Source of the DNA: Octopus vulgaris
Lineage: Eukaryota
Length of the DNA: 64,000 nucleotides
Reading direction: 5' to 3'
Assembly (NCBI GenBank): GCA_951406725.2
Contig: OX597816.1
Location: forward strand, 29,636,001-29,700,000
Numbering within the stretch: position 1 is the stretch's first letter; each line of letters opens with the position of its first letter. Under the pieces are notes generated by a model. It saw only the letters and a list, made by a program, of their open reading frames with translations. It ran no database searches and had not been told where the DNA came from. Positions 5,483-59,207 of this stretch are shown here, piece after piece. The position numbers and the translations under genes are program-made.

Positions 5483-5509
5483 TATACATGCATACATATA
5501 TAAATGCCT

Positions 5510-6285
5510 TTTTTATGAAAAGTAGCATTAAATAAATACAATTATATGAACTGAAATAGAATTAAGAGGAATTAAATTCATTATTTTGAATAGTTAAAGA
5601 GATTCAAAGACAAACCGGTGTTGTCATTGCTTCTCACTGGCTTTCAATGCTTGCCAATTACCAGATGGTGTCGGGTCTACTAGTCCCTGAGTAAAACGAT
5701 TCGGTAAAAGAGGTAAGTAGTTCTGGAAGTGGTGCAATTAGGGTCGATATAATACTGTAATATGAATGGTATAAGGAATATATGGGTGTTAGTGGCATTA
5801 TTGTTCTGTATTTTTTTCTGTTAATGTTAAGTTGTGGATGATATTTATTGATGAAAGTTGCTTCTTTATTCATTCTTTGCTGTACTGAGGTGTTCTATCA
5901 ATGTTCACAGAACACCTCAGTACAGCAAAGAATGAATAGAGAGGAGCAACTTTCATAAATAAATATCAACCTCAACATGAACACAACATACTACAGAACA
6001 CTACTAACCTTACCAATAATGCCACTAACATCCATACATTCCTTATACCATTCATATTACAGTTTATAACAACTACTTACCTCCCTTACACAATCTTTTT
6101 ACTCAGGGACTAGTAGACGCGACAGTGTTTGATAATTGGTACGCATTCAAAGTCAGCAAACAGCAATGACGACACCGATTTGACTTTGAATCTCTTTAAC
6201 GATTCAAAATAATGAATTTAATTCCTCGTAATTATTCCCCAGTTCATCAAATTGTATTTATTTATCGATACTTTTCATTAAAAAA
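5510..6285. mobile_element. Fold-back (inverted) Penelope-like 3' end
   Basis: Arms about 5510-5896 and 5909-6285 are diverged reverse complements around a 12-nt loop. The left arm encodes RMNKEATFINKYHPQLN on the minus strand, resembling the GIY-YIG C-terminus at about 52590-52640. Confidence 0.8.
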
Positions 6286-11917: not shown

Positions 11918-12091
11918 ATAAATATTAGGCAATAAATCCAAATTTACAGGGAAAAATCAGATTTAGGATTGAATCCAATTTTATAGTAAAATATTATATA
12001 ATATTATTAGAGACAAAACCACTATTTTGCAAATCAAACAAGGAAAGACTTAATCAATACATAAAATTTTTTAATATAAATAAATAAATCG

Positions 12092-12135
12092 CCACTACAA
12101 TTGTTTCCTGTCTTCAAATGACATTCATCAGGTGG
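12092..12135 (-). ncRNA. Type I hammerhead ribozyme motif (mirror copy)
   Basis: Exact reverse complement of 12184-12227. Confidence 0.7.
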
Positions 12136-12183
12136 ATTTCATATCTTCTATTCAACATTAAAATTGAATAGAAGATATGAAAT

Positions 12184-12227
12184 CCACCTGATGAATGTCA
12201 TTTGAAGACAGGAAACAATTGTAGTGG
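12184..12227 (+). ncRNA. Type I hammerhead ribozyme motif
   Basis: CCAC-CTGATGA-aTGTC-atttgaa-GACAg-GAAA-C-aatt-GTA-GTGG: stem I CCAC/GTGG, palindromic stem III, GUA triplet ending at 12223. The base of stem II is an A.G mismatch. Confidence 0.7.
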
Positions 12228-12554
12228 CGATTTATTTACTTTATATTAAAATTTGTTATGTATTGATTAAGTCTTTCCTTGTTTGATTTGCAAAATAGTG
12301 GTTTTGTCTCTAATAATATTATATATATATATATATATATGTTTGTGCGTCGGTGTTTGTACCCTCACCCTGGCTTGACAACCGATGTTGGTGTTTACGT
12401 CCCCGTAGCTTAGCGGTTCGACAAAAGAGACCGTTAGAATAAGTCCTGGTGTCGATTTATTCGACTAAAGGCGGTGCTCCAGCAAGGCCACAGTCACATG
12501 GCTGAAACAAATAAAAGAATAAACATACATACATACATATATATACATATACAC

Positions 12555-13655: not shown

Positions 13656-13928
13656 CCTGTTACCTTTATACTCGATGCGACATTTCACTATTTCCAGAGA
13701 CTTCATATACAACAAAATCGGAAGACGGCTTTCTCTTTAGACCTCATCCAAATTTTTCTTTGACAAAGACCTTCAAGGTTTGTTTGTTATCCACTAGCAG
13801 TCAGTCTTATCACTCTACACAGCACCAACTAAAGTATAGCCCTATTTAATGATCATTAAAAAAATCACCGGTTAGTACTGTCCCTATTTTAGTATCAACT
13901 AATCTATATTTCCTCGCTATATATTAAA

Positions 13929-14315
13929 CTAGCAGTATCGCCCGGCGTTGCTCGGATTTGTAAGGGAAATAACTATATAAGCATTTTTAGAGAGTTATAG
14001 CCAAAAAATAGCCAAAAAATGCATTAAAAATGGAAAAAAAAATATGGTAATTTTTTTTTTAAATCGTTGACTCATCGTAGACATTTTTAGAGAGTTACTT
14101 CTCTTGTATAATAGCGAAAAAAATGCATTAAAATGGAAAAAAATGATGGTAATTTTTTTTAAAATCGTAGACGCGCGCTAATACCCAGAAGGGCTCGATA
14201 TGAATCACGACTATAAGATACCCGGTTTTGGTTAAACTGCACCGCAAAATGTGGGAGTAGTTAGGAATCTAAATCGTAGGAGACAGACAGACAACTTCAC
14301 TTTTATATATAAAGA
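13929..14315 (-). mobile_element. Non-autonomous Helitron
   Basis: The minus strand starts TC and ends CTAG, with a GC hairpin (cccggcgttgctcgga) about 11 nt from the 3' end; inserted between A and T. Second copy at 57403-57797. Confidence 0.85.
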
Positions 14316-15080
14316 TTTTTAAGAGTTATTGTCTTCTCTGCTACTTCACTAGAAATACTACATATCAGCTAAACTGTATTGAGTTGAAACATCTTTTAAA
14401 TAAGCGAGAGTTTATATTAAATGATTTAGCATACAGACAAAGCATCATAAATCAATGTAATTCTTGTATTTTCCCATTGGAATAAAAATATATTTTACTT
14501 CTCTGCTAAACAGCCGGAAGACATATATTCAATACTTCTTGTGACGTTTGTTTTAAACACTAAGTCATACTTTGAACTTTTAGAAAGTATCAATTGAATT
14601 AGTTATCATTTACAAACAAAGCATATGAAAGACAATTTTTTTCATTCATTTCATTTACTTTAATTATGAAGAATGAATCCGATGGTATCAGGCTTACCAT
14701 ATTTTTCTCCTTTATTTGTTATTGACAACGGCCTTGCTGAGATTCGTCTTGACAGGTTGTTCGAATAGAACAAATCAACTTCCAGCACTTAATTTTCTTA
14801 AATTTTGGCACTTATGTTGTCCGTTCATTGGGTTACAGGAATGCGAACAAGCTACCGTCACCGCTTGTGATGTGGCGCTGGGAACAAATATAGACACAAA
14901 CAGAAGTGCTTCCATATAGTTTCTGTCTACCAAATACCTAATCAGACTCACAAGATATAGGTTGGTGTGGGCCTCAAGTGGAAAGCAATTGCAAAAGATG
15001 CCTCACAGTGAGACCGGACCCAATACTGCGTCGTTACGAAGCGGGTTTCTTAACCACGCAGCTATACTTGTAGCTATGGG

Positions 15081-15380: not shown

Positions 15381-15940
15381 GTATAATAGTGATAATAGCA
15401 TTAAAAATAATAACGGAAATTGTTTTGATGGTAATACTTGATAATTCTAAAGTATACGCAATTGGTAAATATACCCTTATTCAAATATAGAATCTGACAA
15501 CTAACAATCTATCCACTCATTCTTGTTTGAATTCTCATGTGAATCAACAGGTGTATTTGTACGTTTTAGTAACTGTTGTCGTTGTCATTTTTTACCCTTA
15601 TTCTGCCTATGTAAATGTTTGGCCTGATAAGGTGTACAAAAATGTCATATGCCACACACAGTCAGATGTATGCAAGGGAATTTTCTGATACAAAACCCCA
15701 AGAGTATCTAGGTTGAATTTCCTTCCTCTCACATTGTACATCATATTTTTACGTTTTTCCTTTGTTGAAACTTGTCAAATTATGCCACATATAAGTCGAC
15801 AAGTTTCAGACTGTAGACAAAGTAGAATGCACAAAGCATCATATGTAAAGTCAGTGTGAGACATCAAACTGCTTTCTGTCATGGCTGAGGTTTCGAAATA
15901 AGTTTGATCATGCTTTGCAAGAAAATTGTAACAGTAAAAT

Positions 15941-16401
15941 TCTGTTGTGTCTGGGGAGAGTCATTTTCTTTTTGTGCCTTATAACGTAACACACTCACCG
16001 GTAAAATTTCCACTTATTTCTTATTTTTATTTTCCTAACATTTTTATTTTCCTTGAAGAGTCAAGACTATTGAAAATGTTGCAAGATGCAACGAAAATTT
16101 TAGGAAAATATAACTTTTAGGAAAATAAAATAAAAATAAGAAATAAGTGGAAATTTTATCGGTGAGTGTTGATTCACCTGTTGATACACCTCTTGCAACC
16201 TTTTCAATAGTCTTGACTTTTGAAGAGTCAAGACTATTGAAAATGTTGCAAGACGGAACGAAAATTTTAGGAAAATAAAAATAAGAAATAAGTGGAAATT
16301 TTACCGGTGAGTGTGTTACATTGTACGGCAAAAAAAGAAAACGACTCTCCCCAGACAAAACAGAATATGCTTCAACACACGAACTCAAATCCAAAAACGA
16401 A
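15941..16401. mobile_element. Multi-copy inverted/direct pLTR-like element with 13-bp TSD and HHR-like motifs
   Basis: TSD gtaacagtaaaat at 15928-15940 and 16402-16414. Outer inverted arms; motif copies at 16067-16103 and 16234-16270. Related copy at 45322-45462. Confidence 0.75.
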
Positions 16402-22241: not shown

Positions 22242-23045
22242 GGCGCTGTCGTGACTATATGGTGAGATACTTTCTTCCCATCCACATGATTCTGGGCCCA
22301 GTCCCACTGGGTCACACCACGGTCAAGTGCCTTTATCTATAGCCTCGGGCCGACCAAAGACTTGCGAGTGGATTTGGTAGACGGAAACGGAAAAAGACCG
22401 TAGCATACGTATATATGTATATGCATCTATGTGTGTGTTTGTGTCTGTGTTTGTCTCCCCACCGTCCCTTGACAACTGATATTGGTAAGTTTCCCGTAAC
22501 TTAGCGGTTCGGCAAAAAGGACAGATAGAATAAGTATTTAGCCTACAAAGAATAAGTCTAGGATGCGATTTGTTCGACTGAAACTCTTTAAGTTGGTGTG
22601 TGGAGGCACAATGGCCCAGTGGTTAGGGCAGCGGACTCGCGGTCATAGGATCGCGGTTTCGATTCCCAGACCGGGCGTTTTGAGTGTTTATTGAGCGAAA
22701 ACACCTAAAGCTCCACGAGGCTCCGGCAAGGGATGGTGGTGATCCCTTCTGTACTCTTTCACCACAACTTTCTCTCACTCTTACTTCCTGTTTCTGTTGT
22801 ACCTGTATTTCAAAGGGCCGGCCTTGTCACTCTCTGTGTCACGCTGAATATCCCCGAGAACTACGTTAAGGGTACACGTGTCTGTGGAGTGCTCAGCCAC
22901 TTACACGTTAATTTCACGAGCAGGCTGTTCCATTGATTCGGATCAACCGGAACCCTCGTCGTCGTAACCGACGGAGTGCTTCCACCTTAAGTTGGTGTTC
23001 CAGCATGATCGCATTCTAATGACTGAACTGAAACAAGTAACAGAG
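22242..23045 (+). mobile_element. SINE family A hosting a family C SINE
   Basis: The body breaks at ttaagttggtg (22588-22598, repeated at 22987-22997) and resumes ttccagcatgatcgc. Confidence 0.8.
22599..22986 (+). mobile_element. SINE family C, copy 1 (tRNA-derived)
   Basis: A box tggcccagtggttagg, B box ggtttcgattccc, 11-12 bp TSD. Confidence 0.92.
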
Positions 23046-23183
23046 TATATGTATGTATGTATGTATGTAAGTATGTATGTATGTATGAATAATGTATGTA
23101 AGTATGTACATATAAGAATTTTTGCGTAATAAGATAAGAAACTAAGGCTGTGTAGATATTTGTACATTTATAGATAATGTGTC

Positions 23184-23607
23184 AGATCATTTCGGTTTGA
23201 ACGGCAGTTTTTAACATAATTTCTAGGTAACTAGAAAATTTTAAACTTCGTATACTGGTAGAATGTGTTTATAAAACATCTTTTTCTCTTGAGAAAATTC
23301 TATGGTTTGTAAGATATTTGTTGTTTTTGTTTTTTTTGTGTTTTTTTTTTCTTCAATTTCTGCAATTTCAACCAATCGCTGACGTGTATTGAGGTGAAAA
23401 AACATTTTGTGCCGTATGAATATGTCCCTCATTTAAGAAACAGGCTGGGTTTATTTAAATTTGTGAAGAAAAAAAGATACCCTTCTCCCCACCCCTAACT
23501 CTAAAACAGATTCAAATGCAATAGATCGATACTAGGGTCGTAATTATGGGTGACAATTTCATATGACACCGCTAGAAAAAAAACTGACGTTCAAACCGAT
23601 AAGATCC
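23184..23607. mobile_element. MITE with ~30-bp TIRs and 8-bp TSD
   Basis: TIRs agatcatttcggtttgaacggcagttttt / aaaaactgacgttcaaaccgataagatcc; flanks aatgtgtc / aatgtgta. Confidence 0.8.
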
Positions 23608-23641
23608 AATGTGTATAAATATATATATATATATATGCGTG

Positions 23642-23692
<51 letters not shown>

Positions 23693-23700
23693 TTACTTGT

Positions 23701-24088
23701 TGTGGAGGCGCAATGGCCCAGTGGTTAGGGCAGCGGACTCGCGGTCGTAGGATCGCGGTTTCGATTCCCAGACCGGGCGTTTTGAGTGTTTATTGAGCGA
23801 AAACACCTAAAGCTCCACGAGGCTCCGGCAAGGGATGGTGGTGATCCCTTCTGTACTCTTTCACCACAACTTTCTCTCACTCTTACTTCCTGTTTCTGTT
23901 GTACCTGTATTTCAAAGGGCCGGCCTTGTCACTCTCTGTGTCACGCTGAATATCCCCGAGAACTACGTTAAGGGTACACGTGTCTGTGGAGTGCTCAGCC
24001 ACTTACACGTTAATTTCACGAGCAGGCTGTTCCATTGATTCGGATCAACCGGAACCCTCGTCGTCGTAACCGACGGAGTGCTTCCACC
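23701..24088 (+). mobile_element. SINE family C, copy 2 (chimera of copies 3 and 1)
   Basis: Its 5' diagnostic bases match copy 3 and its 3' bases match copy 1. Confidence 0.9.
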
Positions 24089-24288
24089 TTAAGTTGGTGT
24101 TCCAGCATGATCGCATTCTAATGACTGAACTGAAACAAGTAACAGAGTATATGTATGTATGTATGTATGTAAGTATGTATGTATGTATGAATGTATGTAT
24201 GTAAGTATGTACATATAAGAATTTTTTTGCGTAATAAGATAAGAAGCTAAGGCTGTGTAGATATTTGTACATTTATAGATAATGTGTC

Positions 24289-24727
24289 AGATCATTTCGG
24301 TTTGAACGGCAGTTTTTAACATAATTTCTAGGTAACTAGAAAATTTTAAACTTCGTATACTGGTAGAATGTGTTTATAAAACATCTTTTTCTCTTGGCTT
24401 TATTGAGAAAATTCTATGGTTTGTAAGATATTTGTTGTTTTTGTTTTCGTTTTTTGTTTTTTTTTTTTTCTTCAATTTCTGCAATTTCAACCAATCGCTG
24501 ACGTGTATTGAGGTGAAAAAACATTTTGTGCCGTATGAATATGTCCCTCATTTAAGAAACAGGCTGGGTTTATTTAAATTTGTGAAGAAAAAAAAGATAC
24601 CCTTCTCCCCACCCCTAACTCTAAAACAGATTCAAATGCAATAGATCGATACTAGGGTCGTAATTATGGGTGACAATTTCATATGACACCGCTAGAAAAA
24701 AAACTGACGTTCAAACCGAAAAGATCC
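24289..24727. mobile_element. MITE, duplicated copy
   Basis: Same as 23184-23607, with an extra ~9 bp (ggctttatt). Confidence 0.8.
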
Positions 24728-24751
24728 AATGTGTATAAATATATATATATA

Positions 24752-24796
<45 letters not shown>

Positions 24797-24804
24797 TTAC
24801 TTGT

Positions 24805-25195
24805 TGTGGAGGCGCAATGGCCCAGTGGTTAGGGCAGCGGACTCGCGGTCGTAGGATCGCGGTTTCGATTCCCAGACCGGGCGTTGTGAGTGTTTACTGA
24901 GCGAAAACACCTAATGCTCCACGAGGCTCCGGCAGGGGATGGTGGTGATCCCTTCTGTACTCTTTCACCACAACTTTCTCTCACTCTTACTTCCTGTTTC
25001 TGTTGTACCTGTATTTCAAAGGGCCGGCCCTGTCACTCTCTGTGTCACGCTGAATATCCCCGAGAAATACGTTAAGGGTGCACATGTCTGTGGAGTGCTC
25101 AGCCACTTACACGTTAATTTCACGAGCAGGCTGTTCCGTTGATTCGGATCAACCGGAACCCTCATCGTTGTAACCGACGGAGTGCTTCCATCCAT
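24805..25195 (+). mobile_element. SINE family C, copy 3
   Basis: Close match to copy 1 with scattered substitutions; tcca tail. Confidence 0.92.
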
Positions 25196-36545: not shown

Positions 36546-36862
36546 AATTGAATATTGAGAAAAAATACTGTCAGAATTTTGGGAATAAGTCTTTATTTCT
36601 TTATTATTAATATTAGCGCTTTCGATCGTTTCCCGAACTTGTCGAATAGTAGTTTTTGAAGGTACAAACAACTTGCTCATTTATATAAAACAGGTGCTTT
36701 TTGACCCCCAAAAAACATCTGTTTTATAGAAATGAACAGGCTATTTGTACATTCACAAAATCCTATTTGACAAGTTCGGGAAACGAACGAAAGCGCTAAT
36801 ATTAATAATGGAGTAATAAGATTTTATTCCAAAATTCTGAGGACCTGTTTTCTCAATATTAT
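36546..36862. mobile_element. Fold-back element with HHR-like motifs (U3-A8 variant)
   Basis: Arms 36546-36703 and 36709-36862 around loop acccc. Motif tat-TTGACAA-GTTCG-ggaaa-CGAAC-GAAA-GCGC-TA-ata at 36764-36801. Confidence 0.8.
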
Positions 36863-40279: not shown

Positions 40280-42868
40280 TTCCGTGCCTAGGTCAGGGAT
40301 CTTTGGTAATTATCCAAATACCCTGGCCTGAAAGTATTTTTGAACAAGTTGTTAAGTTGGTTCTCATCGAACCCCAGAGCCCCTCCTAGGACGTCATCAT
40401 TTTCAGCCTCTACCAGCCCTCTATAGAACACCGAGGTGGTATGCCTGCTGCCGGCATTGCCCGTCTTGTGGATAAGCGTGAGTGCCTGTCGGGACTCCTT
40501 TTGTCATACTGTCGGATTACGTCTTTTTATGAAACCGGGTTTAAATCTCTCCATAGACGCCAGGAGCGGGAAGAATTCCTCTGCTAGCGGACTCCACACT
40601 TTATCACCTTCCAGGTGGCGCCAGAGATGTCTCAACCTCAACGCATGTCTGGGCACCATTAGCCAAGGCATTTCTAACCCACCCTTAACGGTTCCTGACA
40701 GCAAACGGAGTACCTTACAAGTTGCTTTCCTCCCTTCCACAAAAAGCGAAAGGAGTCGCTCTAACTTGTTTAGCCACGAATGGGGGGCAAGGGACAATGG
40801 TCAAGTGGTAGGTGATTACAGATGCTATAAACACCTGTACCACCTCCGCCCTTCCTTTCAAGGATAGAGCCCTTCCGGACCAAGTCTGTACTGGGGCCTC
40901 TACCTTGTCTGCCACTTCGCTCCAATTCTTCTCCGTCTGAGAGTCTGGGCCAAACCAAACTCCAACCATCAGTCCAGTGACCTACGACACTGGACGATAT
41001 CGACTTGCCTCCTCCAGGTTACCGCATCCGATTTCATTAGGGTCGCTTCCCAACCTCTCCAACTTCCGCAGTAATGGCTCAAGAGCCAACACGTACAGAA
41101 GTGGAGACAAGGAACACTCTTGACGAACTGAGCGCTTGATCGAAAACGGCTCCGTTAGGTAACCGTTTATCTGGACCGTGGACTTGATGCCGCTATACAT
41201 AATGCAGATCCACCCGTGAAAACCCGGGCCCGACCCAGCCTCTTCGAGGACCGCCGCCAAGTAGTGATGGTCTGCCCTATCAAACGCTTTACTTTGGTCT
41301 AAATGGACCATTGTCCCACCTTTGCCAGATAATTTACCAACCCTGTCTAAGGTGTAGCGGATATGAAGATTGTCCTGGATTGACCTGCCGGGGATTGTGC
41401 ATGCCTATGCCTTCCCTACAGGTTTCTCCACGATAGCCGTCAACCTTTTCGCCAACACCCTGGCCAAAATCTTTAACTGTACATTAAGCAGAGTTATACG
41501 CTTATAATTACTAATACTATCCTCCTTGCTCGGGTCTTTCTAGACCAGCGTTACCACTCCCAGGCTCACAGAACTGGAATTTCTCCCATTCTGTTGCCAG
41601 TTTGTATAGACGCCTGCCAGTACATCCTTGAACAAGTCCGGCATACAACGATAAAACTCGTAGTGCAGACCATCCAACGTCGGTGACTTTTCCCCGACGC
41701 TCTCCCCGAAAAAGCGGGTGAAATGCTGGTGAAATACTTTCTGCATCTCATCCTGTCCATAGATCTTGCGCCCCTGCATTTTACCTCTCTGACTCTCCAC
41801 ACGGTGTGCCCACTCGGCAACATTAATGCCCTCTCGTTTCCCTGCACATAGCTTAGATCTAACTCTGCAACCTTCGTGCTTCGAGTTGAGGTGACGGAAC
41901 AAGGCCGTTCTCACCGGCAGTACTCTAGATGCAGAGCCAGATTCCATAGCCTTGTCTAAGTTCTAAATTAAATCGCCCTCTATTCTAGCACCATCTAAAC
42001 TTAGTTGATTGCTAAATCTACTGGACTCTAAACCGATGGTTCTTTTGAGGGCGTGCCACCATCTATTTTTGATGATGGCGCCACTTAATGCCCTCTGTAC
42101 TAACACCTTAATCCGGGTACACAAGGCTTCACAAGTCAAAATAGACTTGTTCATCTTCCAGTACCCGGGTCCCTGTCTATGACATTTATCTAAATGTACC
42201 TCACACACCACAAATTTGTGATCCGTGTAAGGCACAATGCAAAACTGAGGACAAGTAAAAGTATTCTTATCTCTTTTCCTAACGAATACCCTATCTAAGT
42301 ACGACCTGTGTGAGCCATCGTTGTTATTCCACGTCCATTGTGGAACGCTCGACTCCTCTAGTCAGTAACGGTCTACTAGATTAAAGCTTGAAGCTAGGAT
42401 TCCTTTTCCTATCAGTCGAGTCAGCACTATCCACACGTGCATCGAAGATAGTGTTAAAGTCCCCAAATAGAACTACCATTTTTGACGTCACTAGTAAGTG
42501 CTCCAGGTCTAAAAAATACCGACTGCCCACGCTCGTTAGGGGCGTAGACACGTACCAACCCGAATGACTGTTTACTCACGTGGGTCAAATCCAGGACGAC
42601 CAGCCTACCTTCTGGGTCCAGAAAGACAGTACTTACCTATAAGTGCAAGCTCGTCCTGATAAGGACTTCCACGACCCTCTTCTTATTCGGCTTGGAGAAA
42701 TAAATTTCTCGTAACCATTCAGAAGAAGCGAGAACGCATGAGTTACGGTTATCTTGGACTCGATTACAATAGCCACATCTACTCCATTTGTCGTGCGGTC
42801 GTGCAAGAAACAAGCCTGTTTCCATTCGACCCCATTACACTCACATTCACATAGCCCAGCTTAATCAT
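40280..42868 (-). pseudogene. LINE ORF2 (AP endonuclease + reverse transcriptase), disrupted
   Basis: MIKLGYVNV, YTDHKFV, GPGYWKMN, SPTLDGLHYEFY, LDQSKAFDR, VRQECSLSPLLY, LSLKGRAEVV, GGLEMP. Confidence 0.9.
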
Positions 42869-44077: not shown

Positions 44078-44367
44078 GTGATGGTTTGTTGCCAACTTAA
44101 TGTGTAGTCCCAAGAAAGCGAAGAATGCTACTGCTATTTATCCCCAAGAGACACCGTTTCCAGTTGGCTATGTGACACAAGCGTACTGTGTTTTAAAACA
44201 GGGGAGATAAGCACCTCCACGCAGCAAAGCCAGGACCCAGAGACTAGTTTCAGAGTCTTTGCTCTTCATCACATAGTCAACTGGAAACGGTGTTTTCTGT
44301 GCCTAAATATCAGTAGCGTTCTTCCGTTTCCTGGGACTTCCACATTAAGTAGGCAACAAAACATCAC
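44078..44367. mobile_element. Inverted-repeat element with a truncated HHR motif in its spacer
   Basis: Arms about 44078-44176 and 44269-44367. Minus-strand gTGATGA-AGAG-caaaga-CTCT-GAAA-CTAG-TC at 44242-44272. Confidence 0.65.
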
Positions 44368-51952: not shown

Positions 51953-51956
<4 letters not shown>

Positions 51957-53032
51957 AAATTTAAAAAGGAAAATGCACACACTTTACATAGTTTTAATAT
52001 AATTTTTAATATATCGACCGCTTTCGCTTTCGTTATTCATGATATTATGGTTTACTTATTTGAATATGTATTTTCTTAAGGAAGAATTTTTGTCCATGTT
52101 GTGTTTGATGATATTTACGAGTGAATGACTTCACATCCAAAACTGAACGACATCCTGAAATCACACAAACTCATCAAATGCAAAAAAGCAACACAAATCT
52201 CTAAAGAGACTAGTAACAAATGCGAAGCTTTACAAAACGAACACGAAACCAAAGGTTCAAAAATTTGGACGCCCAAACTGTGGGACCTGCCCCCAACTTA
52301 CTTGAAGGCTCGGATTTCCTTTTCAAACACGGACATAGTTTCACAATTAAAAATAGCGCCTCTGAGAACCTAATTTATATAATAACCTGCTTGGGTTGCG
52401 GACACAACTATATTGGACTGACGAGTATGACCTTGAGAAACAGAACCACTCTACATAAAGAGCAAATCCGTTTCCTGCAGTACAGGCAAATTCCTCTCAG
52501 TGGACATATAGAAAAATGTGCAGATAACATCAAACCAAATTTCACAGTCTTCCCCTTCTACCAGTGCAAAGATACAATCTCTCCAAAAGAACGTTTAAAT
52601 AAAGAAACTTTTTGTCATTGAAAAATACAGAACACGTCTTAATATGCACGCATAACCAACTTTTATCTTTTTACATATTTAAATTCAAGATCACATCACT
52701 GTACATAAATCCCCTCATTAAACAAGTTTTTCGGAACTCTTTTTTCTTTGTCTGTATATATATGCCCTTACCGAAAGCTGAACAGCTATCTCCCTTGCCC
52801 ACAACAATAACAATAATAACGATAATCAATTACCACACCATATTTTTCTACTTGTGAAGTCATTCACTCGTAAATATCATCACACACGACATGGACAAAA
52901 TTTCTTCTTAAGAAAATATATATTCAAATAAGTAAACCATAATATCATGAATAGCGAAAGCGAAACCGGTCGATATATTAAAGATTATATTAAAACTATG
53001 TAAATGTGCATTTTCCTTTGTTTAATTTCTTA
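51953..53032 (+). mobile_element. 5'-truncated Penelope-like element: inverted pLTR, GIY-YIG, pLTR; inserted in (TA)n
   Basis: 51953-52135 is the reverse complement of 52853-53032. The body reads NLIYIITCLGCGHNYIGLTSMTLRNRTTLHKEQIR...ERLNKETF. Confidence 0.92.
52942..52976 (+). ncRNA. Minimal type I hammerhead-like motif, A3-U8 variant
   Basis: ATATC-ATGAATA-GC-gaaa-GC-GAAA-C-cg-GTC-GATAT. Confidence 0.55.
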
Positions 53033-53056
53033 TATATATATATATATATATATATA

Positions 53057-54412
53057 CAGTGGAGGGAAATAAATATTCGTAAATGTCACTATTCTTTATT
53101 TATTTAATATATTTACTATATTTGCAAATACTATATTTGCTTACACATGCATAAACTATGAATATGCAAAAGAATCTAATATAGTATAGTAACTAATGAA
53201 TTTATATTCAATTATAAATATTTAAGGGTGAAAAAAGTATTCGTACAAAACATAAATAACTGATAATTCTGAATTAATACTTCGTAGCATAACCATTATT
53301 CTGTTCCACTTCAACCAATCGCTTTTTGTAGTTATTAATCAATGACTCGCGTGTATCTTTAGGAATTTTTCCCATTCTTCTTGACAATTTTTCTTGAATG
53401 AATCTTAATTTTCAAGAAACGCCACAAATTTTCAATGGGGTTCAAGTCAGGTGACTGGCTTGGCCATTCTAATAATTTTATATTGTGATCGAGAGTGCAC
53501 GTTTTGGTAGACTTTGCCGTGTGCTTACGGTCGTTATCCTGTTGTAAAACCCACCCTTCACAAAGCTGGAGCTTTTCTACAGGGTCCTATAAATTATTGT
53601 TCAAAATATTTTGGTATATCTCTGCATTCATTCTACCATCTATCACATGTAAATTGCTAGTACCATAATGTTGCCACCTCCAAACTTTAAGGTAGCAATT
53701 GTGTTCTTTGGCAAATAGCGGTACCATCTTTCCTTCAAACATGGCTACGCGAATTTTGTTCAAACAATTCAATTTTCGACTGTCTGTCCATAGAACATTT
53801 TCTCAGAATGTGTCAAATTTGTCATTATGTTCATAAACAAAATTTAAACGGGCATATTTTTGCCTTTTATTCAACAGCGGAGACTTTCTAGGAGAGCGTG
53901 ACTTCAGTTCATTCCTATGAAGTTCATTGTTGATTGTTCGTAGTGTAACACTAGTCCCTGAAGCTAACAAATCTTCTTGCAACTCCTTTCTGGTGATCAT
54001 TGCGTTTTTTTCGATTCTTCGCTTCATTTTTTTTAAAGATCTAGGGGAAATCTTGCATGGTACACCGGATCTTATTCTGTTTTCAACAGTTCCCGATTAT
54101 TTATATCTTCGAATATATGAAGATATGGTAGAAAATGGAATACAAAGTGTCTCTGATATTTTCCTGTAACTTTTACCTGTTTTCCACTGTTCGATATTTA
54201 AGTTTTTCACTGAATTTGTGAGTTCTTTACTTTTTTCACCCCTAAATATTTATAATTGTATTCATTAGTTACTATAATATATTAGTTTCTTTTGCATACT
54301 CTTAGTTTATGTATATGTATGCAAATATAGTATTGGTATATCCCATGTATGTTCATTAGAAATTAAATAAATAAAGAACGTTGACATGTACAAATATTTA
54401 TTTCCCCCACTG
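53057..54412 (-). mobile_element. Tc1 DNA transposon with long IR/DR-type TIRs and a decayed transposase
   Basis: Ends cagtggagggaaataaatatt / aatatttatttcccccactg within TA. Transposase motifs [28 protein letters not shown] and GYATKY-stop. Confidence 0.92.
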
Positions 54413-54482
<70 letters not shown>

Positions 54483-56700: not shown

Positions 56701-57402
56701 GAGAAATAATGCTATTACGTCATACCACTCAAATACTGTGTATTATATTATTTGTTTCGTATTTTATAAGAAACGCTTTTATTCAAATGGGGATTCATTT
56801 AGAAGATATTTATCTTTATGTAAGGAATTAATTAACTATATACATGACTGCATTACTCAATTATGGTCTTTAAGCAAGCAACATATATTTTTATTTTAGA
56901 ATTATTTCAAATATAATCTTTCTATCTCTCTATCCTACCCTTCGGGACTTCAAATAGCAATGTGCAAGATTTTAGACAGAAAAAAAAGAGAATAATTCCG
57001 TATAAAGCTTTTAGTCCTAAAGGTATGCATCAAATAAATTCATTTTTATTGCATAATAGCAATCAGCAGGAACACATTGAGCCACCAGGGTGCCGATTTA
57101 CCAGCTGAAGTGTTTTAACTTCATATTCCCTTGCGGGCGCTAAAGTGGGCATGTTCGGTTCTATCCTTTCAGTATTTTGTTAGTATTTTTTAAATCCTTA
57201 TATTGATAAAATAATAAATGCGGATTAAATAGTTTTTACGTCATTTAAGATTAAAGTATGGATAGATATGCTTTAGGTAATTTTCCATTCAGAAGTTATT
57301 ACAACAGAACTTTAGAAATAAATTTTCTAAAATGTACATACAAAAAATATACATCAATACATGCATATGACATGTCCCTGTGTGTGTTTAACATATGTAT
57401 GA

Positions 57403-57797
57403 CTAGCAGTATCGCCCGGCGTTGCTCGGGTTTGTAAGGGAAATAACTATATAAGCATTTTTAGAGAGTTATAGCCAAAAAATAGCAAAAAAATCCATTA
57501 AAAATGGAAAAAAGTGATGGTAATTTTTTTTTAAATCGTTGACTCATCGTAGACATTTTTAGAGAGTTACTTCCCTTATATAATAGCTAAAAAATGCATT
57601 AAAATGGAAAAGAATTATGGTAATTTTTTTTTTAATCGCAGACTCATCGTAGACGCGCGCTAATACCCAGAAGGGCTCGATATGAATCACAACTATAAGA
57701 TACCCGCTTTTGGTTAAACTGCACCGCAAAATGTGGGAGTAGTTAGGAATCTAAATCGTAGGAGACAGACAAACAACTTGACTTTTATATATAAAGA
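57403..57797 (-). mobile_element. Non-autonomous Helitron, copy 2
   Basis: TC...CTAG on the minus strand, hairpin cccggcgttgctcggg, A|T target. Closely matches 13929-14315. Confidence 0.87.
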
Positions 57798-58178
57798 TTA
57801 GACAGAGAGGGAAAGCTAGAGGTAGAGTGCATGTGCATGCGTGCGTGTGTATGTATGCGTGTATGAATGAAAAGTCGAAGAGAATGCTACTGAAAAATCA
57901 TGAGACTTTCTACACTAACGTCTTTTTCAAGATTACCAAGAGTATCTCGGACACCACTCGATTACATTTTGTCCTGCATACACTTGTATCTTCATTTGAA
58001 GGTGAATTAATTGTTGAGATATGATCCCTTCTAAACCTTCTTGAGTTGCCTTAGCAGCAGGTCTTTTGTCGCATAAAACACTAATTACTTTAGAACTTGT
58101 GAAAATTACCTTTCCAAATCGACTTCTTAGAAAATTAGAGACAAATTAAGCTCTTATTTTCACTTAATTTCTCCTCCT

Positions 58179-58217
<39 letters not shown>

Positions 58218-58337
58218 CACAATCAAGGAACGGCATATTAGGCCATTCACCCACTAGAAATAACAGCCAAAAGCTTTAACCGCAAAATAACGTCAATTCC
58301 GTAAACCAGGAGAAAATTAAAAAACATTTACCCTGTA

Positions 58338-58444
58338 ATTTCTTAGACGATGCACCGTTTCATCTACTGTTTAATGGAAAACTAACCTGATTAAATTAAA
58401 TCAAGCCAATCTACCATAGGCCCTTAGATTCATCAGTAAGAAAT
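58338..58444 (-). ncRNA. Type I hammerhead ribozyme (mirror copy)
   Basis: Reverse complement of 58825-58931. Confidence 0.85.
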
Positions 58445-58824
58445 AGCCAAGCCGGAACAGATATTTTTCACGAGGCATTCTCGTTGCTACCTCGTCAATA
58501 TCTGACCTAAAATTTTCAAATCGTCGCACTCGCGCCAAATTTATCGGCAGCAAATAAATATAAGCCGCCGATTCCATTACGGAATTAACCAGAAAATTCA
58601 TAATTAATCAATATAGGGTGGCAAAAGAATTCTACAAAATTTTTTTGCCACCCTATATTGATTAATTATGAATTTTCTGGTTAATTCCGTAATGGAATCG
58701 GCGGCTTATATTTATTTGCTGCCGATAAATTTGGCGCGAGTGCGACGATTTGAAAATTTTAGGTCAGATATTGACGAGGTAGCAACGAGAATGCCTCGTG
58801 AAAAATATCTGTTCCGGCTTGGCT

Positions 58825-58931
58825 ATTTCTTACTGATGAATCTAAGGGCCTATGGTAGATTGGCTTGATTTAATTTAATCAGGTTAGTTTTCCATTAAAC
58901 AGTAGATGAAACGGTGCATCGTCTAAGAAAT
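58825..58931 (+). ncRNA. Type I hammerhead ribozyme with extended stem II
   Basis: ATTTCTTA-CTGATGA-ATCTA...TAGAT-GAAA-CGg-tgca-tCG-TC-TAAGAAAT: complete core, 8-bp stem I, GUC site ending at 58923. Confidence 0.85.
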
Positions 58932-59152
58932 TACAGGGTAAATGTTTTTTAATTTTCTCCTGGTTTACGGAATTGACGTTATTTTGCGGTTAAAGCTTTT
59001 GGCTGTTATTTCTAGTGGGTGAATGGCCTATTATGGCCGTTCCTTGATTGTGATGTTGAACTTAAAAATGGTTTATGACTATTTAATTTTTTCCCACTAG
59101 GCCGCTGGTGGCAAAAGAATTCTACAAATTTTTTTTTGCCACCCTATATTGA

Positions 59153-59207
<55 letters not shown>

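Follow-up and report, generated by a model that had tools for sequence, protein, structure and literature searches.

Head-to-head insertions of a 491-nt retrozyme unit with two fixed ends in Octopus vulgaris, and their probable copying by a Penelope-like protein

The palindrome near the right end of the window (the whole stretch of 64,000 nucleotides that was analysed) is an insertion of a 491-nt unit, F1, which represents a young, dispersed, non-coding repeat family and which is, by the features tested, a non-LTR retrozyme. The unit works like a Penelope-like element (PLE) and is most likely a non-autonomous one. Our preferred reading, to which we assign a probability of roughly 0.6, is that the insert was copied by a borrowed PLE protein with RT and GIY-YIG domains, which primed from both cut (TA)n ends at two sites, A and B, in the RNA. 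The copying steps are reconstructed from the unit itself, a hammerhead motif with covariation, tandem arms, A and B ends, junction microhomology, a haplotype shared between arms, and intact PLEs of the same layout. The origin of the inverted repeats and tail of PLEs and the mobiliser of animal retrozymes are both stated as open in the accessible parts of the literature, and in this family the insertion signatures of PLEs can be counted on a retrozyme (a strict one-A-one-B rule, a shared haplotype and multi-unit arms).

The insertion and its repeat family

A BLAST comparison of the window with itself gives an inverted self-match of 840 nt at 58216-59054 with 98.8% identity, and the arms 58234-58631 and 58638-59035 are 99% complementary. 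At this locus a single substitution and a single deletion, about 20 nt from the left end, distinguish the two arms. A hairpin starts at 58617 and again at 59107, a spacing of 490 nt, with CTATATTGATTAATTAT directly after each copy, so that the palindrome and the repeated hairpin are as the initial annotation had described them. The same annotation held that the first hairpin copy is preceded by the reverse complement of everything downstream of it; this is correct up to 59054, where the mirroring of the right arm by the left arm stops, and does not apply to 59055-59160. The stop at 59054 is a fixed end of the repeat family and not a random stop.

The insertion lies between a left (58182-58215) and a right (59158-59204) (TA)n target tract. 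In unit numbering (u1-u491, counted from window position 58660), the B arm on the minus strand (58216-58626) consists of inverted u475-491 and u1-395, and its outward end is the fixed end B (..CCTTGATTGTGAT) against (TA)n. The A arm on the plus strand (58617-59160) consists of u448-491, the single full unit (58660-59150) and u1-10, and its outward end is the fixed end A (..CCCTATATTGATTAATTAT) against (TA)n. The arms meet at a head-to-head junction (58617-58626) with 10 nt of microhomology, GGTGGCAAAA, which equals the outer hairpin stem. Also on the plus strand are the first hairpin copy (58617-58652; 15 bp including one G-U pair), a small GGCC hairpin followed by 16 nt to site B in its native context (59025-59054), the second hairpin copy (59107-59143), with end A 17 nt downstream, and the 106-nt "tail" from end B to end A (59055-59160), which is present in one arm only. 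No stop-to-stop frame of at least 120 aa overlaps the insertion, and the unit contains no RT/GIY-YIG ORF and no obvious LTR, PBS or PPT.

A long-read fold-back or assembly artefact at this locus is scarcely credible. None of the listed public short-read contig pieces spans the locus or the junction, which is evidence neither way but leaves room for an artefact, and the arm of another copy (L144) looks degraded. Against this, the left arm joins unique flank through (TA)n and the right flank is not mirrored, the left arm stops at the fixed end of the family, and the arms differ at two places. The same layout is present at 54 loci with different and mostly asymmetric junctions, and arm-arm joints occur at many positions in the contigs of an independent run.

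A search of the octopus genome (2.8 Gb) with the unit listed 1105 candidate loci, and the 40 that were scored contain 214 matches, most of them 98-100% identical and many in tandem, so that the unit of the palindrome is not a chance sequence; a 27-mer from the unit has 955 exact genome matches (control, 0). Divergence from the majority sequence averages 2.1 substitutions per unit (113 full units from the 40 top-scoring loci). Unit length is 487-496 nt, with one unit of 511 nt, and tandem arrays reach 11 units; together with a predicted hammerhead, these arrays support the earlier proposal of an RNA-derived, terminally redundant unit (490-491 nt) in (TA)n. Two sister families that we met beside other loci and sampled, F2 (475 nt) and F3 (about 468 nt), are approximately 70% identical. 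Pieces of the unit occur in two runs guessed to be RNA that do not cover the unique flanks, which is weak evidence of transcription; strand and circularity are invisible in contigs.

Some loci have further structure. In the 11-unit arm at L039:2027-7574 variants recur with a period of four units, which suggests either block duplication or a multimeric circular template. At L142:4530-5820 a 650-nt stretch of mixed repeats, present as a tandem duplicate between an F1 arm and an F2 copy, could reflect two neighbouring insertions or captured host DNA. Near position 8712 of L301, on the minus strand, there is a hammerhead-like motif with a long stem-loop II that is unlike F1-F3 and is perhaps a further family.

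Outer ends, inner junctions and the template

The 71 loci that we mapped are the 40 with the highest scores, one on contig C2, and 30 on contig C1 that bring the positional sample there to 35. Two head-to-head arms are present in 54 of the 71 (24 of the 35 in the positional sample). The outer ends against (TA)n fall at site A, near u501, and at site B, near u395 and 106 nt upstream of A, and each site lies 16-17 nt 3' of a hairpin. One arm ends at A and the other at B in 46 of the 54 inverted insertions (positional sample, 19 of 24), no insertion is A/A or B/B, and in the other 8, among which L146 is a cropping effect, one end lies off both sites. In counts that left out second arms under 29 nt, the sister families show A/B ends in 10 of 10 distinct inverted insertions (F2) and in 5 of 8 (F3), the other three F3 insertions having A and an off-site end. 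There are 417 exact junctions of end B with (TA) (control, 0), and the suggestion that the left arm of the studied locus ends wherever self-primed synthesis stopped gives way to a fixed site. At L063, the sole non-(TA)n site checked, an 11-13-bp target duplication flanks the whole inverted insert; at other loci such a duplication is hidden because the target is (TA)n.

These ends bear on the possibility that arrays and inversions formed from monomers after insertion, at the DNA level, by slippage, unequal exchange or replication fold-back, in the manner of a dispersed minisatellite. Local amplification is discussed in the available part of 10.64898/2026.07.22.740005, and the four-unit period of L039, like the mixing of units in L035 and L049, is a sign either of some subsequent change in the array or of a mixed template. 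We nevertheless consider this very unlikely as the general explanation, since in 46 of 54 insertions both outer ends abut (TA)n at the fixed internal sites A and B, a target duplication surrounds a whole inverted insert at L063, and the units are young, as measured on the 113 top-scoring full units.

The inner junctions, by comparison with the outer ends, are scattered over the unit. Among 43 ungapped junctions (11 gapped ones were left out), 11 have microhomology of at least 4 nt, against 2.2% by chance. The hairpin holds 23 of 108 inner breakpoints where 8.4 are expected, in a set that may be biased by the query, and 8 of 48 where 3.7 are expected in the positional sample (p 0.03); it is a 2-3-fold hot-spot for stops, and the first hairpin copy of the studied locus lies at such a stop. 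Both inner breakpoints are inside the hairpin in 4 of 54 insertions (positional sample, 1 of 24), approximately what the enrichment of single ends predicts. Inversion centres thus recur at the hairpin in a minority of genomic copies, and we rejected the hairpin as a universal inversion centre.

The mechanism in the initial annotation, a snap-back at the hairpin, agrees with the 10-nt microhomology at the studied locus and with two more loci, but as a general mechanism it is not supported by the 4 of 54. In a broader form, one cDNA primed at A or B would fold back by microhomology and copy itself, and the second end would be produced by endonuclease resolution or by a short opposite cDNA. Palindromic junctions have been read as self-priming in rotifer Penelopes (PMC3846280), and the tail has been attributed to endonuclease resolution (PMC8557442), in the parts of these papers available to us. 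An exact search for a fold at the hairpin base matched 11 times. Eight of these matches are variant hairpins and 3 are true junctions, the studied locus among them; the 3 amount to under 1% of the B-end count, although an exact pattern misses variants. At L047 the fold is nearly at the hairpin base. Near-symmetric junctions (within 30 nt) number 13 of 54 where 6.7 are expected, and 3 are exactly symmetric, at short palindromes, which makes a fold-back route plausible for a minority of insertions. The haplotype shared by the arms, described below, is likewise what self-copying would give.

Other features of the junctions argue against snap-back. The offset exceeds 30 nt in 41 of 54 junctions, and the 303A pattern of L049 is not mirrored between arms. 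Either arm may be the longer (A in 31 and B in 15 of 46), yet each ends precisely, so that snap-back would need each of the two sites to serve as a start as well as a stop. We judge snap-back unlikely as the general account and give it about an even chance as a minority route or for the studied locus alone. The hairpin is at most an occasional fold-back point and not a general primer.

Both arms are longer than one unit in 20 of 46 insertions, arm lengths are uncorrelated, and only 2 of 125 inner ends are at the predicted ribozyme cut. The multi-unit arms and the few ends at the cut indicate that copying passed the ribozyme site repeatedly, and a linear cleaved monomer was rejected as template since inner ends do not pile up at the cut site. 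The template was a circle or an uncleaved multimer, which the data do not separate. For diagnostic variants, the two arms of one insertion agree in 203 cases and disagree in 3, and shuffling the arms between loci turns these counts into 51 and 301; at 10 loci a private variant is present in both arms. Two unrelated RNAs per insertion are rejected by these shared variants, which reflect either one template lineage per insertion or later conversion. Two candidate mixed insertions were also rejected: L142 is best read as two neighbouring insertions, and in L144 an arm is degraded.

Hammerhead motif and RNA structure

A core scan of the plus strand of the unit found CUGAUGA at 58833-58839, GAAA at 58908-58911 and a GUC triplet ending at 58923. 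The predicted type I hammerhead (58825-58931, with a predicted cut after 58923) has a stem I of 8 bp (58825-58832/58924-58931), a stem II of 5 bp (58840-58844/58903-58907) that encloses a long hairpin, with 68 nt between CUGANGA and GAAA, and a short stem III with a UGCA loop. An inverted second copy lies in the B arm at approximately 58338-58444 on the minus strand (coordinates by mirroring). CUGANGA is present upstream of 235 of 248 F1 3'-half motifs, mostly at the 68-nt spacing. In 24 hand-picked sequences from F1, F2 and F3 the core letters are invariant, 96% of cells in the pairing are paired [slid controls, 39-51%], and 9 of 14 pairs change on both sides; because these rows represent three related lineages, the covariation counts do not amount to independent events. 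The basal pair of stem II is mismatched in F2, and the hammerhead fold (-27.5 kcal/mol) lies 3.3 kcal/mol above the local minimum (-30.8 kcal/mol). Rfam at E up to 5 returned no hammerhead, only hairpin-shaped miRNA and other matches, all below their own cut-offs. We conclude that the unit carries a predicted type I hammerhead with a long stem-loop II, for which self-cleavage is a prediction of the model. Because Rfam missed a hammerhead of this form, retrozymes of this kind may be undercounted. In vitro, 8 of 9 predicted Xenopus retrozymes did not cleave, according to the available part of 10.64898/2026.07.22.740005.

With both hairpin copies included, the plus strand of the unit folds far better than shuffled sequences (z -8.4; minus strand, z -5.7). 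The 15-bp hairpin, whose second copy precedes end A, is kept in F2 and F3 with compensatory change and with 2-4 G-U pairs in common variants. In these sister families it is stable as plus-strand RNA and weak as cDNA (-3.6 to -5.5 kcal/mol, common variants), which counts further against snap-back. The view of the hairpin as a built-in cDNA primer is thus not sustained: what is conserved is a plus-strand RNA structure with G-U pairs that make it weaker in cDNA, and an RNA signal near start A fits better.

The same structures bear on a rolling-circle origin. Helitron- and Replitron-like rolling-circle elements have a 3' hairpin and form tandem arrays, and the F1 arrays and the hairpin 17 nt from an end resemble them. 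The conserved hammerhead, the G-U-based RNA structure, the variable 5' truncation with inversion, the target duplication and the intact RT/GIY-YIG elements that share the layout all speak against such a derivation, which we regard as extremely unlikely.

Penelope-like elements and copying from both ends

The genome contains three young intact PLE families with frames of 775, 781 and 838 aa, all of which occupy (TA)n sites and have two ends. The 775-aa and 781-aa frames have RT and GIY-YIG Pfam matches. The 838-aa frame has no significant Pfam match, and its family (Hydra-like) is placed in the Hydra clade by motifs alone (RWK, DKT and YRDD as described for that clade, with RWK and DKT used for the placement). 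In the 775-aa family 10 of 11 inverted copies are A/B and one is unresolved. The window itself has a GIY-YIG frame at 52217-52621, within an older PLE 3' fragment (51955-53031) that has an inverted pLTR and both ends in (TA)n.

Two young PLE families (L222:5483-9081 and L245:3381-7084) have, in many near-identical copies, a separate frame of 454 or 479 aa that is read in a different phase from the RT-endonuclease frame and overlaps the beginning of the latter. Canonical PLEs are described as single-ORF elements, and the extra frame possibly reflects an intron or a frameshift. The scanned regions of these two families contain no canonical CUGANGA. The Hydra-like family (L285:3306-5819, L286-L294) has an Asn-rich stretch between RT and endonuclease.

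Of the four PLE families examined, none is clearly homologous to the unit, although the genome may have others. The 775-aa and 781-aa families and the older one to which the window GIY-YIG frame belongs were rejected as partners for lack of similarity, and what looked like an end match beside 781-aa copies came from an adjacent Hydra-like element. Compared with the Hydra-like pLTR, the unit shows marginal similarity [dinucleotide shuffles scoring as well: F1 2/150, F2 12/150, F3 1/150]. The layout of this family, whose clade is described in PMC8557442, resembles that of the unit: a hammerhead is followed by end B, a long tail with a hairpin, and end A. Its tail is 83 nt, its end A motif (CCCTA-A/T-rich-ATTA) is similar to that of the unit, its target is (TA)n, and its copies form head-to-head pairs with one long and one short end, whereas its compact hammerhead differs from that of the unit in the loop of stem III. 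The Hydra-like family is a weakly supported partner, with slightly less than an even chance of being the mobiliser.

We propose that plus-strand transcription of tandem copies would supply the RNA, which the hammerhead would cut to monomers, and these may circularise. The hairpin-bearing B-A region would be bound by a PLE protein, probably a dimer, that would nick both (TA)n strands, and from each of the two 3' ends synthesis would begin within the RNA, at a point 16-17 nt 3' of a hairpin. A single circle or uncleaved multimer would be the template for both cDNAs, which would vary in length, often exceed one unit and stop, more often at the strong hairpin, after which joining by microhomology would give a head-to-head insert. 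At the studied locus either both stops would be in the hairpin or one cDNA would have snapped back there; the sequence is identical either way, and we consider snap-back and two-end priming about equally probable at this one site. According to the accessible part of PMC11167929, an anole PLE protein, a predicted dimer, cuts and extends both strands in vitro, and the two internal positions from which it starts delimit the tail. As far as that part goes, its start site did not differ between strands, so that the strict one-A-one-B rule is not in itself predicted by that work. Two further points weigh against priming from both ends, as the shared haplotype is equally compatible with snap-back or later gene conversion and the excess of near-symmetric junctions favours some fold-back.

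A stronger version, doubtful in our view, is that the two RT subunits of a PLE dimer, each hard-wired to one hairpin-marked start, work on a single 491-nt ribozyme-made circle at the same time and go round it several times each, so that the product is always asymmetric and two-primer, and that structure alone, without pLTR homology, borrows the enzyme. If true, twin priming would be programmed and not accidental, the inverted-repeat-plus-tail signature of PLEs would be explained, and the circles of animal retrozymes would for the first time be tied mechanistically to what mobilises them. With a 491-nt substrate and three intact young PLE proteins in one genome, twin priming and self-priming can be distinguished directly by experiment.

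The available descriptions of animal non-LTR retrozymes (PMC7229834; 10.64898/2026.07.22.740005) agree with the unit in several respects: they are non-coding, low-GC tandem repeats with a type I hammerhead per repeat, they occur as dimers to multimers with a target duplication of more than 4 bp where visible, and they coexist with PLEs that are proposed as mobilisers. At 491 nt the unit is longer than the retrozymes of approximately 170-400 nt in PMC7229834 but is within the 51-972 bp of 10.64898/2026.07.22.740005. It differs from those described there in the 68 nt with a long hairpin between CUGANGA and GAAA and in head-to-head arms with two fixed ends. Retrozymes have self-cleaving linear and circular RNA; for the unit, cleavage is predicted and a circle may form. 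With PLEs (PMC11167929; PMC8557442; PMC3846280; parts available) the unit shares partial tandems, a 5'-truncated inverted head-to-head copy, a one-sided tail, a (TA)n or AT-rich target, a hammerhead upstream of the ends and microhomology joins, and it differs in having no ORF, a tail of 106 nt and not 30-40 bp, and arms that are arrays of up to 11 monomers. L1 twin priming, in the accessible part of 10.1101/2024.08.27.596794, resembles our proposal in that both nicks prime on one RNA, with joining by microcomplementarity and a 5' inversion. In L1, however, the internal site at which the second primer anneals is a matter of chance, and the lengths of the arms are correlated; the unit has a fixed second site, uncorrelated arm lengths, no poly(A), and an inverted structure in most insertions (positional sample, 24 of 35).

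The general kind of insertion (retrozyme or PLE) is already known. At abstract level, supplements aside, the open-access literature that we searched contained no retrozyme with a strict head-to-head A/B layout, a 106-nt tail or a long-stem-loop-II hammerhead, although the supplements of 10.64898/2026.07.22.740005 might list such families.

The other fold-backs in the window, which had been attributed to the same process as the studied palindrome, are unrelated sequences; two are inverted PLE pLTRs and one has terminal inverted repeats. At approximately 11925-12340 there are head-to-head Hydra-like PLE pLTRs in (TA)n, each with a compact hammerhead, with the long end on the left and the short end on the right. 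The element at 53038-54413 has terminal inverted repeats of about 200 nt starting with CAGTG and flanked by TA, and we take it to be a likely relic of a Tc1/mariner-type DNA transposon. Older decayed palindromes (68-81%) that are unrelated to the unit are located at 5509-6284, 15939-16366, 36551-36860 and 44078-44367. A very abundant repeat with internal tandem units of 100 nt, which resembles a non-autonomous Helitron, has two copies (92%) in the window, at 57402-57799 and 13928-14317. Broken frames at 40982-42361 on the minus strand have motifs that resemble those of a LINE reverse transcriptase and endonuclease, and at 22599-25190 there is a tandem duplication with a period of about 1.1 kb (96.5%).
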